This document shows, piece by piece, positions 155 to 11,106 of a DNA stretch of 11,595 bases. This stretch comes from a virus (taxonomy: Duplodnaviria; Heunggongvirae; Uroviricota; Caudoviricetes), in the IMG/VR virus record IMGVR_UViG_2579778753_000002, positions 1-11,595 of that record; one strand, 5' to 3'. The position numbers and the translations under genes are program-made. Position 1 is the first letter of the stretch. Every line of letters begins with the position of its first letter. Below the pieces are notes generated by a model, which saw only the letters and a program-made list of their open reading frames with translations, had not been told where the DNA came from and did not search any database.

Positions 155-230
155 CCTCAAAAATGACCACACAACTGACCACACATTTCGTTGAAGCCCT
201 ACGAACAACGACGAACAATAACAAACAAAA
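155..230. repeat. Arm-type direct repeat (left), containing tandem TGACCACACA x2 and CGAACAA x2
   Basis: About 95% identical to 11031-11106 (4 differences over about 75 bp). In an excised circle the two copies would flank the core at roughly 60 and 85 bp, as integrase arm sites do in attP. Confidence 0.6.
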
Positions 231-1445: not shown

Positions 1446-1716
1446 ACCCGCTCCAGAATGTTTTAAACATGCATCTTGCGAACAACTTTCAGAAGAGGTC
1501 AAAAAATGCGCTATATGTTGAGCATAAAACAAGCAAAATTAACATGCCAAAAATAAAAATACTTAAAATTCAATACAATAGAAAGATGATGATGACGAAT
1601 GAAAATGCAAAAACTAGCCTTTTTCCGCGCCGCTCCCGCCCCGTGGCAGGCCACCTCACCGGGAGGACCCACCCAAAAAAGGCGACTGTCACTATTGTTT
1701 ATGCTCCATGAGCGAC

Positions 1717-1738
1717 AAAACCGCCCGCAGGCGGTTTT
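1717..1738 (-). terminator. Rho-independent terminator (usable in both directions) after the gpI-like gene
   Basis: AAAA-CCGCC-cgca-GGCGG-TTTT, 18 nt downstream of the gpI-like stop (1756). Confidence 0.7.
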
Positions 1739-1755
1739 ACATAAAACGTTTTGTA

Positions 1756-2397
1756 TCAGCGACCAATCACCACAATCTGGCCGCCATCCCCTTCATCTGC
1801 TGTGCTGATCTCTTGCGAAATCACCCGCGACCCGACGCGCATTTCACCGTACAGAACAGGCACAACATTGCCCTGGGCAACCATGTTATCCAGAGAGGAG
1901 AAATAGGTGTTCTGCTTACCGTTATCCGTGGTGCTGGCTGTTGCTGTGCTGGCTTTCGGTGCCAGCATCTGTGCAACACCACCAAGTGTCATCGCCGCCC
2001 CCATTGAAAAGAGAATGTCACTGAAAGCGATACTGATTCCTGGCATCCAGATTGCCGTAGCAATCAGCGCCGCACCAAGCACCGCCTGAAACACGCCGCC
2101 ACTTTTGGCACCAGCCAGACGCGGTACGATGTGGATCACGGCACCATTTTCCAGCGGTTCATTAAGACGGGCTGATAATTCGTTTTCGCCTGTATCACGC
2201 CCGGCAATACGCACCTGATACCAACCATCGCTCAGTTTCTGACGAAACGCTGGGATCTGCATGGCCAGCGCCCGGATGGCTTCGGCCCCCGTTTTCACAT
2301 GAAGATCGATGCGGCGGCCAAATCGTTGTAAATCCCCGTAAAGGCAGATGCGTGCCATGCCCGGTGACGCCAGAGGGAGTGTGTGCGTCGCTGCCAT
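1756..2397 (-). CDS. Lambda gpI-like tail tip assembly protein, 213 aa
   Basis: ATG start with an AGAGAGG RBS. The protein (MAATHTLPLASPGMARICLYGDLQRFGRRIDL...ADEGDGGQIVVIGR) matches my recollection of lambda tail assembly protein I almost end to end, with a shorter Gly/Ala-rich central region. Recalled, not searched. Confidence 0.65.
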   Translation of the reverse strand: MAATHTLPLASPGMARICLYGDLQRFGRRIDLHVKTGAEAIRALAMQIPAFRQKLSDGWYQVRIAGRDTGENELSARLNEPLENGAVIHIVPRLAGAKSGGVFQAVLGAALIATAIWMPGISIAFSDILFSMGAAMTLGGVAQMLAPKASTATASTTDNGKQNTYFSSLDNMVAQGNVVPVLYGEMRVGSRVISQEISTADEGDGGQIVVIGR

Positions 2398-2486
2398 TTG
2401 TCGGTATACCTCTCTCGTTTGCTCAGTTGTTCAGGAATATGGTGCGGCAGCTCGCCGCCCCACGTGTTCAAAGTACCGCCTTGTTG

Positions 2487-4708: not shown

Positions 4709-4731
4709 AAAAAAGCCGGATTTCTCCGGCT
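4709..4731 (-). terminator. Rho-independent terminator ending the replication operon / ori region
   Basis: On the minus strand: AGCCGGA-gaaa-TCCGGCT followed by TTTTTTG. Confidence 0.65.
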
Positions 4732-4867
4732 TCTGTCACTCGTTGCTTAAAACGGTATGTTATCCCCGTACGGATCATCATTCCCCGCCTGTTGTTTTGG
4801 TGTGCTTCGCTGTCATAGGCTTTATCTCACAGCAGTAAATTAAAATTTTTGCGTTTTAACCCTTCAC

Positions 4868-5090
4868 CTGTTCACCTTTTGATATTTTCTCTTTTAATTC
4901 ATAATGTTAAGGGGTGAACAGTTTCAAAAAAACTATTCACCAACTGTTCACCACTGTTCACCCTTGAAGCTCAATAAACAATCAAAAAGGTGAACAGTGA
5001 ATAGTTTGGTGAACAGTTCATAAATAACTGTTCACCCTATAATATACTGATATAAAAGATATTTATGACAGGGTGAACAGTGGTGAACAG
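4868..5090. repeat. Iteron array (at least 9 copies of GGTGAACAG / CTGTTCACC in both orientations) with an AT-rich stretch: candidate P4-type origin of replication
   Basis: Direct copies at 4913, 4989, 5009, 5072, 5082. Inverted copies at 4868, 4944, 4954, 5029. Degenerate copies at 4933 and 4997. AT-rich 5041-5069. Sits immediately 3' of the alpha-like gene. The motif contains TGTTCACC, which I recall as the P4 alpha-binding type I iteron. Confidence 0.75.
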
Positions 5091-5103
5091 TTATTCCATA
5101 AGT

Positions 5104-6921
5104 TTAATTTTTGCTATCGTCATTAGTGACCGATACACATGATGGCATCCAGTCTTCTGATTCCTCCGTCAGTGTCACGTTTGAACGCAAACCGTGCTTC
5201 GTTTTCCGTTTCATATACTCCCTGCCATATTCCGCCATTGCCCCCGGCATATCTTTACCGAAGCGCGTCAGTGTTACAGGTTTACCAAACCCATGTGCCC
5301 TCATATAAGCCAGATAGGCATGATAGAGATACCTGCGTGGGCTGAATGGCACAATTTCAGCATTACCCACTAACAGGCCATCACACATTACCGACGCCAT
5401 GAGATAGCCGCAGAAGTCCACCAGCGAATCCCCCTCTCGCTTTATCGCCAGTGCTTCTTCTGATTTCTGCTGCTCATATAACAGGCGTCTGGCTTCGTCC
5501 TGGTCAGCAAACCGTGTAAGCAGATGGCGAATCACTACCGCCAGCTCACCTTCTATTTTTTCCGCCAGCATTGGATCACGTTCGTTCTCCGGTACAACTT
5601 CCGAAAAATTGAATATCACCCGACGACGTGAGATCCCCCCGCTGCGGTCACTGAATGACATGGCGTTATTGTTAACCGCCAGCACTACTGCCGGAATACG
5701 CGTTGAGTAGGGGGCTTTGTGTTTCGGGTCAATTGCCACCTTGTCACCGCCTGTAATAGCCTTAATCCCTGCCCCATCACCAGCGTAGCGGGTCATATCC
5801 GGCATGATAATCAGCGAAAAGCCAACCACTAACGCGCGTTCCCTTGCATCTTCCAGCGCCTTCATGCTTGCCGATACTGTGTTGGCCTTACCCGCCAGCA
5901 TGGTGCAAATCTCCGCCATCACGCTTTTACCACTTCCCCCTGGACCTGTTACCTCAATGAATAACTGCCAGTCGTACCGGTTCGCCAGCACCATGAATAA
6001 TGCAGCCAGTACGCGATCCGCCTTGCGGTCATTCTCAGCCACCGAACGGCGTAACCACTTCCAGAAATTCGGCGCATGTGTTGCCAGCATTTCCCCCTCT
6101 GCTGGTGGGCTGAAAGGTAATTCACTGGCAATTAACAACCAGTCGTTTTTGTTATGCTCCCGAAAATTACCTGTTCTGGTATCAAATACCCCGTTACTGA
6201 ATCCAATCAGGTTACGGGCTGTATTCCCCATTACAGGCAAACTTAACTTCATGGTATCGACCGCCGATTTAATGGCGTTCTGCGAATAGCTGATCTCCGC
6301 ATCAATGAAAATCTGCGCCATAGCTCGCTGTAATTCTTTATCCTGTACTGGCTCCCATACAACGCCGTTGTAATGGTGAACAGTGTCAGAGTCAGCATGA
6401 ATCGCCAGTTCACCGCCATAATGTGCCAGGAGAACTTCGCCGCGTTGACTTGCTCCCATCTGGTTAAGCGCCAGTGATGAAGCGTTATCGTCTTTTACCC
6501 GCTCTTTTTTCTTTACAGGCAGTTCAACTACCTTTTTCTTTTCCTCCAGCTCTGCCCGTTCACGTTCCAGATATTCGCGCCAGTTCTCCCGTTTCTGGCT
6601 GTGCATTCCTTCAGGGTAATAATCAGCATCCCTGACACCTGCCGCTGCCAGTTTCTGCCCGATGGTATTAACAAGCCCCGGACGCAATAACCCCGCCTGA
6701 TAGAGACGCACGCGATAGCGTCCGTCCGGTACGATTTGCAGGTTGTCCAGTTCGGCAAGTTGTTGCTCTCCAAGCCAGACAGGAGGCACGTTATCGCCAG
6801 CCAGTCGCCCGTCCTGTTCCTGCCACTGCTTCGCATGTGCCCACGCATTACTACCCGCAAAAATGATGACTTCCGTCATTTTGTCACGCGGCTGGTGTTT
6901 TAAATTTGGCGCTTTTTTCAT
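5104..6921 (-). CDS. P4 alpha-like replication protein (D5_N-type domain plus SF3 helicase with Walker A GPGGSGKS; phage/plasmid primase P4-family C-terminal region)
   Basis: About 605 aa from the ATG at 6921 (GGAG RBS); the ORF track extends to a GTG at 6936. Walker A VTGPGGSGKS, Walker B-like LVVGFSLIIMPD. Adjacent to the iteron array. Confidence 0.85.
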   Translation of the reverse strand: MKKAPNLKHQPRDKMTEVIIFAGSNAWAHAKQWQEQDGRLAGDNVPPVWLGEQQLAELDNLQIVPDGRYRVRLYQAGLLRPGLVNTIGQKLAAAGVRDADYYPEGMHSQKRENWREYLERERAELEEKKKVVELPVKKKERVKDDNASSLALNQMGASQRGEVLLAHYGGELAIHADSDTVHHYNGVVWEPVQDKELQRAMAQIFIDAEISYSQNAIKSAVDTMKLSLPVMGNTARNLIGFSNGVFDTRTGNFREHNKNDWLLIASELPFSPPAEGEMLATHAPNFWKWLRRSVAENDRKADRVLAALFMVLANRYDWQLFIEVTGPGGSGKSVMAEICTMLAGKANTVSASMKALEDARERALVVGFSLIIMPDMTRYAGDGAGIKAITGGDKVAIDPKHKAPYSTRIPAVVLAVNNNAMSFSDRSGGISRRRVIFNFSEVVPENERDPMLAEKIEGELAVVIRHLLTRFADQDEARRLLYEQQKSEEALAIKREGDSLVDFCGYLMASVMCDGLLVGNAEIVPFSPRRYLYHAYLAYMRAHGFGKPVTLTRFGKDMPGAMAEYGREYMKRKTKHGLRSNVTLTEESEDWMPSCVSVTNDDSKN

Positions 6922-7217
6922 TTCTGCTCTCTCCACGCGGCAATCATGTTTTTCAGTTCCTGTAGTTTTTTATCAACATCCATACATGACACATGGTTAT
7001 TTCTGGAAGGCGGGATTTCCCGCCGGAATCTGCAAATAAAGATCTCCACGTTCAGCGAACTATGAAATGAATAGCCATCACGAATAAAATACACACGGTC
7101 AAACATCAGTTCTTTTACCGTTACTCTGTTACCGTTCTTATCCAGATAAATAGCGCCGGGGATAATTTTGGGGTGTGCATAACCGCTGGCAGTCAAGCCA
7201 GATATATATGTTCTCAT
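6918..7217 (-). CDS. Hypothetical protein (99 aa), translationally coupled to the alpha-like gene
   Basis: ATG start. Its TGA overlaps the ATG of the alpha-like gene (ATGA at 6918-6921). No family recognised. Confidence 0.55.
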   Translation of the reverse strand: MRTYISGLTASGYAHPKIIPGAIYLDKNGNRVTVKELMFDRVYFIRDGYSFHSSLNVEIFICRFRREIPPSRNNHVSCMDVDKKLQELKNMIAAWREQK

Positions 7218-8593: not shown

Positions 8594-8818
8594 TTACGCT
8601 GCCTTACCTGAATTAACGCGGTCACGGCTTTGCACCCAGTCCATAACTTCGGAAAGCAACCAGCCTACAGAACGCCCCCCAAGATTACGGCGAGACGGAA
8701 AGCCCCCTTTCTTCTCCAGTTCGTAGCGTGTAGTACGGCTGACGCCTGTTAACTTACGACATTCATCCTCACGAATTACGCGATCTGTTAGTGATTGAAA
8801 TTGTGTATTTTGATTCAT
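8594..8818 (-). CDS. alpA: AlpA-family prophage transcriptional regulator (74 aa)
   Basis: ATG with GAGGGTG RBS. HTH region (CRKLTGVSRTTRYELEKKGGFPSRRNLGGRSVGW) matches the AlpA/MerR-like fold found next to P4-type integrases. Confidence 0.85.
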   Translation of the reverse strand: MNQNTQFQSLTDRVIREDECRKLTGVSRTTRYELEKKGGFPSRRNLGGRSVGWLLSEVMDWVQSRDRVNSGKAA

Positions 8819-8921: not shown

Positions 8922-9776
8922 TTAATTTTCATTAGATAACATTTTTCTTATTTTTTCTAAAGAATCGCTGCGCATTATTTTTTCTAAGAAGGGTTTTACA
9001 GTCTGAGCAATAGCAAAGGTGTCCTTTTCACCATCAGGATACAAAGATACGGCAAGCACCCCTAATGAAATTTTTCTATCTGTAGACAACTCCCAAGATA
9101 ATAAGTCAATTAATGGGATTATCTTATAATCAATAATTTTACGTCGTATGCTCTCCCAACTTCCTGCAATTGGTTTGTCTGGCTCAACAATTGAAAGTTC
9201 ACTACGCCATTTTGGTAATAGTTTTGTAAACGCTTCAATCAACTCATCATCTCTGTTATGTAGTAAGTCAACAGAAACAAGCATATTATCTAATGTATCA
9301 GAAAGGAGATTCACTGGTTCACGCATCACAGCCCAAAACATCCCATTATCTTCTGATATTAAACTTCCAACCATCTCATTATCTATGATGATTGGTTTAT
9401 CCTTCCAATATCCTCTTTCCGCAGTCAGTTTATTAATCATTGATATATCAAACCTTGTTACAGGTTTAATTCCATCATCATAACTTAGCTCAATTAACTT
9501 CGGTTGCACTTTATGGTCATATTCTTTTTGTTTATCACAAAACCAATCGTCTTCTTTCAGCTCTCCAAATGGATCCCCGTAATTATTATGCAACGGGTAT
9601 TCAGCACCAAACATAAATCCATATTCAGGCATCTCAGAATGTTTCATCGTTAAATCATCTTGTCGCCAATATAATTGGCGAAATAGATCTTTATCCGACA
9701 AGTTTTCTAGGCAATCATATTTGCCTAAATCAAATGACTTTGGTAAATCTTTTTTACTATTTACTTTTTTCGTCAT
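8922..9776 (-). CDS. Hypothetical protein (284 aa), AT-rich cargo gene between int and alpA
   Basis: Uninterrupted 855-nt ORF. Its ATG overlaps the int TGA (ATGA at 9773-9776). Visibly more AT-rich than the flanking int and alpA. No recognisable catalytic motif. Confidence 0.75.
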   Translation of the reverse strand: MTKKVNSKKDLPKSFDLGKYDCLENLSDKDLFRQLYWRQDDLTMKHSEMPEYGFMFGAEYPLHNNYGDPFGELKEDDWFCDKQKEYDHKVQPKLIELSYDDGIKPVTRFDISMINKLTAERGYWKDKPIIIDNEMVGSLISEDNGMFWAVMREPVNLLSDTLDNMLVSVDLLHNRDDELIEAFTKLLPKWRSELSIVEPDKPIAGSWESIRRKIIDYKIIPLIDLLSWELSTDRKISLGVLAVSLYPDGEKDTFAIAQTVKPFLEKIMRSDSLEKIRKMLSNEN

Positions 9777-10993
9777 TGTATCCCTCTCAATATCACAATA
9801 TTTTCATTATATCCTGCAATCATATCAAGACGCTCAACCCATAGATTCAGTGCGTCCCGTTTCGCCTGCAAATAGCGTGAATGGTTATAGGTTTTTTGCT
9901 GACCTGGCATCTGATGCGCTGTGATGTGCTCCACGATATGCGGATCGACACCTAAATCATTCAGCATAGTTGTAAACGTGTGTCGGAAATCATGCAGCGT
10001 CCAGTGTTCCTGCTTAAGCCGCTTATGCGCATTTCGTCCATATTGCGCCACCGTGGTATCTTTTTTCAGTTCGCCGAGTAATAACCCAGTGTGTGCGTTT
10101 TGCTCCACCAGCTTCTGAATGAACGGCAAAATACCATCAGGAATAGGTCGGAATATTGTTACCTTCGTTTTGCTGTGCTCTTTTGGCACTGTCCACAACA
10201 TTTCTTTCAGATCCCATTCTTTGATCTCTGAAAGTCTGATCTCTGCCGTTCTGCACCCGAACACAATTAACAAGCGCATTAACGCACTGTAATAGGGAGC
10301 GAACACATCACCATCAATAGCGCGTAGAATTTCTTTTAGTTCGCTGTTGCTGTGCACTCTCTCGCGGATTTCTGCTCTCTTACCCACATCAGTAACGATC
10401 AAATCGTCCAGGGCGTTGCTAAACGCGTAGCGCCGCCTGCGGCAAAACTTTAGCGCCTGTTTGCATGTCTGCATGACATGGCCCGCTGCTACTGGTGCTT
10501 TTTTTCGTACGCGGTCAAAACATGCGATCCACTGCCTTGTATCACACTTATCAAGGGGAATTGCCCCAATATGGCAAATGATGTGCTTATCCATACGCTG
10601 CACCAGCTTTATGTAATCTTTGCGGTTATCCTTCGCGTATTCCTCCAGCCAGTAGTTAATCGCTTCCTTCACCGTAACGGGTTTTAGTGCTTCCTGTACT
10701 GTGGCGCACAACTCATAACGGGGGTTTTTACCCTCAGCCAGCCATGCCCGGCACAGTGTGCGTTTTTCCCTTGCGGCTTTCAGCGACAATTCAGGGTAAG
10801 CCCCCAGCTTTAACCGCTCTGCGGCAACCTCACGGCCTCCCGTTCGGTACCGGAAATACCAGGTTAATTTGCCGCCCTTTGAGTGTTTAATCTCCAGCCC
10901 GCCCCCGTCGGAGTAAAAACGCTCTTTTTCTGCCTGGACAGCCGCCAATTTTTTTAACGTCGAATCGCTCAGTTTGTTTAGTGCTTTTCCCAC
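9773..10993 (-). CDS. int: P4-family tyrosine integrase (406 aa)
   Basis: GTG start with GAGGA RBS. N-terminal arm-binding-type region (GGLEIKHSKGGKLTWYFRYR...GAYPELSLKAAREKR). C-terminal catalytic region with HDFRHTF and a downstream Tyr. Adjacent to the att site. Confidence 0.9.
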   Translation of the reverse strand: MGKALNKLSDSTLKKLAAVQAEKERFYSDGGGLEIKHSKGGKLTWYFRYRTGGREVAAERLKLGAYPELSLKAAREKRTLCRAWLAEGKNPRYELCATVQEALKPVTVKEAINYWLEEYAKDNRKDYIKLVQRMDKHIICHIGAIPLDKCDTRQWIACFDRVRKKAPVAAGHVMQTCKQALKFCRRRRYAFSNALDDLIVTDVGKRAEIRERVHSNSELKEILRAIDGDVFAPYYSALMRLLIVFGCRTAEIRLSEIKEWDLKEMLWTVPKEHSKTKVTIFRPIPDGILPFIQKLVEQNAHTGLLLGELKKDTTVAQYGRNAHKRLKQEHWTLHDFRHTFTTMLNDLGVDPHIVEHITAHQMPGQQKTYNHSRYLQAKRDALNLWVERLDMIAGYNENIVILRGIQ

Positions 10994-11030
10994 TATCAGA
11001 TCCTCTTTTCAGTCCTCCAGCCTCAAAAAA

Positions 11031-11106
11031 CTGACCACACAACTGACCACACATTTTGTTGAAGCTCTACGAACAACGACGAACAACAACAAACAATAAA
11101 ACAGGA
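11031..11106. repeat. Arm-type direct repeat (right), partner of 155-230
   Basis: Same tandem TGACCACACA and CGAACAA sub-repeats. Lies in the int upstream region, about 40 bp from the int start. Confidence 0.6.

Follow-up and report, generated by a model that had tools for sequence, protein, structure and literature searches.

We identified a complete tail tip gene of the lambda gpI type inside a PICI-type satellite, where it lies between the satellite's capsid gene and its cos site on a single 755-bp fragment of a lambdoid tail operon. Judged from sequence comparisons, and with a probability of roughly one half, we consider it to be a captured, still-functional gene for the tail-tip plug that would add to the helper's own supply of gpI. 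The window to which all coordinates below refer, unless another locus is named, is the whole stretch of 11,595 nucleotides that was analysed. The satellite occupies most of it and consists of the following features:

Between thiM and rcnR: integrated element of 10,868 bp, bounded by 70-nt direct repeats that are 94% identical
159-228, plus strand: left att repeat, a direct-repeat match to 11027-11096
11027-11096, plus strand: right att repeat, a direct-repeat match to 159-228
9773-10993, minus strand: tyrosine integrase (open reading frame and profile matches)
After the integrase and before the AlpA-type regulator, minus strand: gene for a DUF6387 protein
8594-8818, minus strand: AlpA-type HTH regulator
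Between the AlpA-type regulator and the primase, minus strand: small Icd-like and DUF4222 genes
5104-6936, minus strand: D5-type primase
About 4880-5100, just downstream of the primase gene: iterons
Between the iterons and the capsid fusion, minus strand: open reading frame of 69 aa
2487-4400, minus strand: ClpP-like prohead protease/major capsid fusion gene (Pfam PF00574 and PF25209)
1625-1670, minus strand: cos core GGGTCC...ACGGGGCGGGAGCGGCGCGG, directly downstream of the insert
960-1445 as annotated by PGAP (161 aa), to 1532 in the mechanical open reading frame, minus strand: DUF1441 TerS-like gene (PF07278; PHROG 141 'terminase small subunit')
After the TerS-like gene, minus strand: open reading frame of 95 aa

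An integrase at one end, an AlpA-type regulator, a primase with an adjacent origin, att repeats and a size class of about 10-15 kb are all traits of PICIs, as are a helper-type cos and a TerS-related packaging protein, and at the level of sequence they show the window to hold a PICI-type Gram-negative cos satellite. The iterons, CTGTTCACC / GGTGAACAG, are densely arrayed and presumably mark the origin of replication of the satellite; a strong terminator-like hairpin follows on the minus strand at 4711-4734. Matches to head or packaging proteins are confined to the protease-capsid fusion and the TerS-like gene, with no open reading frames for portal, head-tail adaptor, connector or TerL. Both have relatives among helper-type phages: the capsid fusion protein is 57% identical to its counterpart in a helper prophage that embeds a related PICI, and for the DUF1441 protein the identity to the helper-type TerS located ahead of gpA is 71%. 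A search of solved structures with the DUF1441 protein gave no match, including to Rpp entries if these were present in the copy searched, and an Rfam scan of the window returned nothing. One trait is broken, namely the rule that PICIs carry no tail or lysis genes (termed 'forbidden' in SatelliteFinder; PMC10085698, PMC6092414), since one intact tail-tip gene is present.

The region between the primase and capsid genes differs among relatives. Some sister PICIs at the thiM/rcnR site that lack I carry a HEPN-domain gene there (L008, 4975-5688), and in the window the same spot holds nothing comparable; an accessory and defence hotspot adjoining pri has been described for this position in the study of Tai (PMC11364771). 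Loci L003 (5938-6010), L004 (12500-12572) and L010 carry a second cos-like copy between the primase and capsid genes, which in L003 and L004 is 94.5% identical to the 73-nt cos stretch, and a second cos-like copy has likewise been reported for EcCICFT073. Within the window itself the cos core occurs as a single exact copy, and the same core is found in related PICIs. By comparison with lambda cos, the stretch at 1625-1670 is a lambda-like core.

The imported DNA and its junctions are made up of the following features:

2458-2486, minus strand: left junction (by comparison with the empty sites in L007 and L008)
2295-2457, minus strand: K remnant, the last 53 codons and stop of lambda K, a C40 peptidase (blastn and translation)
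1756-2397, minus strand: I gene, gpI-type tail tip protein, an ATG-to-TGA open reading frame of 213 aa
1703-1755, minus strand: lambda I-J spacer (alignment with lambda and a prophage)
1717-1738, minus strand: I-J hairpin AAAACCGCC-TGCG-GGCGGTTTT, within the I-J spacer
1675-1702, minus strand: right junction (by comparison with the same empty sites)

The I gene encodes a full-length gpI homologue. Its product matches Pfam family PF06805 (Lambda_tail_I) over aa 14-97 with E=3.9e-23 and 82.1 bits, well over the gathering cut-off of 23.8, and is covered end to end by PHROG 32 'tail assembly protein' (E=1.8e-83). In a search of solved structures, residues 1-213 aligned to residues 1-223 of 8IYK chain I (E=5e-104), and lambda gpI as represented in 8IYK, 8IYL, 8K35 and 8XCG is collinear with the satellite protein over its whole length; residues 126-212 additionally align to a fragment in 9E7M. 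The layout is therefore that of an N-terminal Lambda_tail_I domain, two central hydrophobic helices and a C-terminal plug/beta-strand domain, and the sole gap relative to lambda gpI is a 10-residue deletion in the hydrophobic middle. Identity to the satellite protein is about 77% for lambda gpI and 84-89% for the I proteins of lambdoid coliphages, and the C-terminal domain differs from the phage copies by three conservative substitutions. The preliminary description, made from the letters alone, had assigned the gene to the gpI family, which the Pfam, PHROG and 8IYK matches bear out, and had correctly recognized its setting, a satellite in which the capsid fusion lies on one side of it and the TerS-like gene on the other; it had called the gene near-full-length, where the 213-aa product is in fact full-length.

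Nucleotide homology extends well beyond the gene. Window positions 1703-2457 correspond to lambda 14713-15497 in one unbroken stretch, as seen by blastn and by alignment with lambda and with a prophage, and this 755-bp fragment comprises the last 53 codons of K, the whole of I including its native RBS, and the I-J spacer. The K remnant has neither a start codon nor the N-terminal 146 residues, and the corresponding piece in relatives is labelled by PGAP as 'phage tail protein, incomplete, missing N-terminus'. As in lambda, I begins within K, so that the final ~100 nt of the remnant belong to both genes, and the native RBS of I (GAGAGG, 11 nt upstream of the ATG) lies inside the remnant. At the other end, homology to lambda stops 8 nt short of the position of the J start codon, and in the alignment with lambda and the prophage no J sequence was found past the fragment's end. 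The hairpin core AAACCGCCTGCGGGCGGTTTTGTC in the spacer is identical in lambda. A promoter and terminator scan did not score this hairpin as a canonical terminator, with only 4 U directly after the stem.

By these alignments the RBS, the I gene and the hairpin are one contiguous piece of a lambdoid tail operon and no autonomous unit. It was thus misleading to present the gene as self-contained with its 'own RBS and terminator', both of which are native lambda sequence within the fragment. The lambda arrangement that had been given for comparison proved accurate, with K (14276-14875) overlapping I (14773-15444) and J starting at 15505. The K-I-J order recurs in 21 of the 21 long loci from species-representative genomes, which makes an I gene outside this setting, with K cut to its last 53 codons and J absent, unusual. 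That the gene stands alone, as first described, holds insofar as there is no K-I-J tail operon around it, but a K remnant lies upstream and overlaps I.

The insertion site can be read from two sister PICIs (L007 and L008) at the same thiM/rcnR position, whose backbones are near-identical and in which the fragment is absent. At these empty sites, CAACAAGGGCGGCGATAGCCGCCTTTTTTT separates the capsid stop codon from cos and forms a strong hairpin with a T-run. In the window, the capsid stop is followed at 2476-2486 by CAACAAGGCGG, which is common to the PICIs without I and formed part of the left arm of the former terminator, and then by about 16-18 nt of unassigned filler that leads into the K remnant. 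At the right junction, 12 nt of likewise unassigned filler (ATAAACAATAGT) precede GACAGTCGCCTTTTTT, which at 1675-1690 represents the remainder of the same terminator (loop, right arm and T-tract), now parted from the left arm. A simple junction model based on microhomology (GGCGGCGA) was considered as a full explanation and rejected, given the 12-18 nt of filler at both junctions.

Because the fragment was inserted between the two arms of the hairpin, the capsid terminator has been destroyed. A sigma-70 scan found no promoter-like match between the capsid gene and I, and from this, together with the loss of the terminator, I is probably transcribed together with the PICI late operon, as its final gene. 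The imported hairpin, with four U after its stem, would then act as a weaker stop ahead of cos. The sole minus-strand sigma-70-like match in the late region (TTGGCA-18-TATGCT, 1521-1550) is found past cos, ahead of the start that PGAP assigns to the DUF1441 gene, and the TerS-like gene may thus have a promoter separate from the capsid-I transcript.

In a survey of 5,426 complete E. coli genomes, the capsid-K'-I-cos junction was present in 23 and the empty junction in 162, so that about 12% of the family carries I. The carriers belong to different backbones, situated at thiM/rcnR, at clpS/cspD, at tRNA-Ile(mug)/nfeF and inside a prophage terminase gene, with differing integrases and sites, and the same junctions were found in every I-bearing copy examined. 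Identical junctions indicate a single capture event, and comparison of the loci shows that this capture has later spread onto at least four PICI backbones. Public assemblies contain the exact satellite I protein in 293 indexed blocks, and among the matches listed the context was that of a PICI in 10 of 10. Four loci in IMG/VR and four in metagenomes are all of the same element type, and an exact-match scan for the right junction among species-representative genomes returned none.

Two of the carriers (L010, at 8362-19642, and L018) have the same I-bearing late module in a PICI located within the large-terminase (gpA) gene of a prophage, and hence embedded in a helper. The surrounding prophage encodes a DUF1441 TerS and a protease-capsid fusion, together with a lambda-type tail that has a K-I-J of its own; its I protein is 85% identical to that of the satellite, with differences mainly in the hydrophobic helices. 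Such differences could have a functional effect in either direction. Another I-bearing PICI (L003, NZ_CP148328.1) forms a circular record of 10,790 bp, labelled a 'plasmid', within a complete E. coli assembly. On the chromosome of that strain the junction query matched best to the K-I region of a prophage, covering 63% of the query, and none of the matches listed was an integrated copy, which suggests either an excised, replicating episome or an assembly artefact. A tblastn search against plasmids found no other small circular satellites with I, and only one 10.8-kb record.

Certain other matches do not belong to this distribution. Loci L040-L054, in assemblies of unrelated organisms such as Neobacillus, Shewanella, Pseudomonas, Bradyrhizobium and Enterococcus, contain sequence that is 100% identical to lambda K and J and 77% identical to the query I, matching lambda's own I; they often occur on contigs of ~48.4 kb or at low coverage, and look like lambda DNA contamination of the assemblies. 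Escherichia phage 500465-3 (13.5 kb, unannotated) was considered as a possible I-bearing satellite and set aside, its pattern of open reading frames being that of a fragmented tail region.

The nearest prophage copy of I among the matches listed from the 5,426 genomes is 93.5% identical in nucleotide sequence; therefore, either the donor is unsampled or the capture was not very recent. The preliminary description had itself raised the alternative of a fragment identical to a resident prophage and flanked by K and J remnants. Half of this applies, in that a K remnant is present, while the gene is complete and no listed prophage copy exceeds that identity. At least four I-bearing loci (L004, L012, L014 and L016) have mosaic alleles, in which lambda-like or other phage-like sequence occupies the middle or the 3' end of I with differing breakpoints while the PICI junctions are kept. 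The satellite I therefore continues to recombine with phage I genes. Neither cointegrates nor extended captures that include J, L or M were found in any I-bearing locus.

None of the 25 complete copies, which were drawn from complete genomes, IMG/VR, metagenomes and other assemblies, has a disrupted gene; the product is 213 or 223 aa long, and the class-1 I-bearing copies are at least 99% identical. Outside the recombinant tracts, five point variants are synonymous and two non-synonymous, one of the five synonymous variants coming from a sample selected on protein identity. Intactness and this 5:2 bias constitute weak evidence of selection (binomial p about 0.01-0.04) because the I-bearing clade is young, and in a young clade few disabling mutations are to be expected anyway. 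Between the satellite gene and its nearest prophage copy dN/dS is 0.12, compared with 0.20-0.27 among the phage copies themselves; the low value could largely be older than the capture. These integrity and substitution data fit a functional I, short of proof.

What a second copy of gpI might do is suggested by the role of the protein in lambda, where it forms a trimer inside the tail tip. Its C-terminal strands thread the gaps of the gpJ hub, its plug closes the lumen, and it binds the C-terminus of the tape-measure protein gpH (PMC11101478, PMC12617516). Moreover, its two hydrophobic helices have been proposed to enter the outer membrane upon tip opening (PMC11101478). In one sublineage, a lambdoid fragment consisting of the 3' end of K, I and the I-J spacer entered the capsid-cos terminator, probably by illegitimate recombination. 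With the capsid terminator lost, I would become the final gene of the late operon and be translated from the RBS that it brought along, with transcription partly halted at the imported I-J hairpin. The product would be a working gpI that co-assembles into helper tails, serving as an extra or alternative supply through dosage or complementation. Co-assembly appears the most likely outcome because the C-terminal domain that contacts J and H is almost unchanged. As 88% of the PICI family does well without I, the gene is dispensable; any benefit of the satellite gpI would be small.

The principal alternative, which we regard as distinctly less probable though still a serious candidate, is that the K'-I segment is debris of recombination during co-replication with a helper, without effect on satellite or helper whether or not it is expressed, and kept only since it is recent and harmless. 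The useless K remnant and spacer came in together with I, the insert is limited to 12% of the family, diversity within the I-bearing clade is low, and PICIs are known to gain helper late genes and then lose most of them (PMC10111431), all of which agree with such a passenger; set against it are the absence of disruption in any of the 25 copies, the lean of the point variants towards synonymous change, the occurrence of the insert on at least four backbones and a dN/dS that is not raised relative to the phage copies, each of them a weak objection in a clade so young. In an opposite scenario, which follows the idea in the preliminary description that helper tail-tip assembly could be interfered with or retargeted, the satellite gpI would compete with the helper's gpI for gpJ, gpK or gpH, so that tip assembly is poisoned or tails are made that are dead for ejection, and the output of the helper or of a superinfecting phage would fall, by analogy with Tai and Tab. 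Blockade of tail assembly is indeed proven for PICIs and prophages (Tai, PMC11364771; Tab, PMC10884400), and the satellite allele does differ from that of the embedding helper in the central helices. We nevertheless consider this improbable: the satellite's own transfer needs the same tails, and any interference with their assembly would be paid for with its own vehicle; the J- and H-contacting domain is only three conservative substitutions from the phage copies; no counter-defence partner is visible; and the placement of the gene suits late co-expression rather than constitutive expression. An identification of the satellite I as a Tai was rejected, since PICI Tai proteins are described as small, encoded adjacent to pri and without homology to known systems according to the authors (PMC11364771); PADLOC 2023, whose library is older than Tai and Tab, gave no match. 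Given the near-identical C-terminal domain, embedded in gpJ and in contact with gpH, simple co-assembly would be more likely than poisoning, and the satellite I looks like a retained captured gene and no dedicated inhibitor.

Two further readings concern what the insert might change. Receptor specificity is a property of gpJ and the side fibres and not of gpI, which counts against the view that a built-in satellite gpI alters ejection, for example through insertion of its H1/H2 helices into the outer membrane, and thereby gives satellite DNA access to recipients closed to the helper (for example lysogens with DNA-entry exclusion) or broadens the set of helpers. The proposed membrane insertion of the gpI helices (PMC11101478) and the centring of allele variation and swapped mosaic tracts on the helix region would suit this reading, but it is purely inferential, and homologous recombination alone yields a mosaic pattern without selection; in both of its parts we rate it marginally below interference. 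A looser form, in which satellite gpI acts in helper tails as tip plug and outer-membrane-insertion module and either alters entry or rescues I-defective helpers, is doubtful too, if a little less so than interference. Lastly, 755 bp of helper homology might serve as a site of homologous exchange with helper genomes that promotes late-gene capture or cointegrates. Among about 25 copies, phage I alleles have contributed sequence on at least four independent occasions; such exchange is, however, the expected by-product of any shared sequence, and neither cointegrates nor J, L or M captures are seen in the I-bearing loci. This is the least probable of the readings considered here.

Relative to lambda, the satellite retains the domain order of gpI, the native RBS and the downstream hairpin. 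It differs in that the gene is placed after a capsid gene and ahead of cos, outside a tail operon, and in that the protein is 10 residues shorter in its hydrophobic middle, a length that also occurs in some phages. PICIs have been shown to acquire late genes from helpers, which lie in a downstream 'Late zone' (PMC10111431), and the I insert shares with those cases its location in this zone downstream of the replication module, its nucleotide similarity to prophage late genes short of identity and the prophage-embedded state of some carriers. That study stresses capsid genes and large clusters, whereas here a single tail-tip gene has defined junctions within a terminator; among the entries listed in its supplement, Lambda_tail_I appears in two Klebsiella gene profiles of the capsid-forming type. 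The I capture is thus a new and well-resolved example of known late-gene capture by PICIs and not a new type of system.

The backbone resembles that of the EcCICFT073-type cos PICIs with Rpp (PMC6092414, PMC6739421) in int, alpA, pri with an origin, a capsid homologue, a lambda-like cos, a small TerS-related protein adjoining cos and a size of about 11 kb. It differs from them in that the small protein is of the DUF1441 type and close to the helper TerS. In those accounts the absence of phage structural genes is a trait of PICIs and no PICI-borne tail gene is described (PMC6092414, PMC6739421), and among the papers searched none uses both the terms 'PICI' and 'tail assembly protein'. The cf-PICIs likewise bring structural virion genes of their own and rely on the tails of a helper; they encode their own portal, head-tail adaptor, connector and TerL and no tail parts (PMC10085698), while the element in the window is the reverse, with one tail-tip gene. 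Tai and Tab (PMC11364771, PMC10884400), compared by their descriptions only, are also encoded by mobile elements and act at the tail-tip and tape-measure stage of siphophage assembly, where gpI works. They are, in contrast, small proteins without known homologues that serve in defence and in many cases come with a counter-defence gene, whereas the satellite I is an orthodox structural tail gene.

These observations bear on how PICIs are recognized, since they are defined, and found by software, partly by their lack of tail genes, and elements that carry I are likely to be rejected or misfiled. The insert also provides a clean natural case of helper late-gene capture, with defined junctions, an empty site for comparison and later allelic exchange, and isogenic PICIs with and without I exist in nature on the same backbone. 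Should the satellite I do nothing, it would be a dated snapshot of gene capture before decay. Should its product enter tails, it would offer a handle on the role of gpI in tip opening and outer-membrane insertion. PICI particles and the helper virions made in the same cell would then carry a satellite-encoded tail component, and this would be the first PICI to contribute a tail part instead of only stealing tails.
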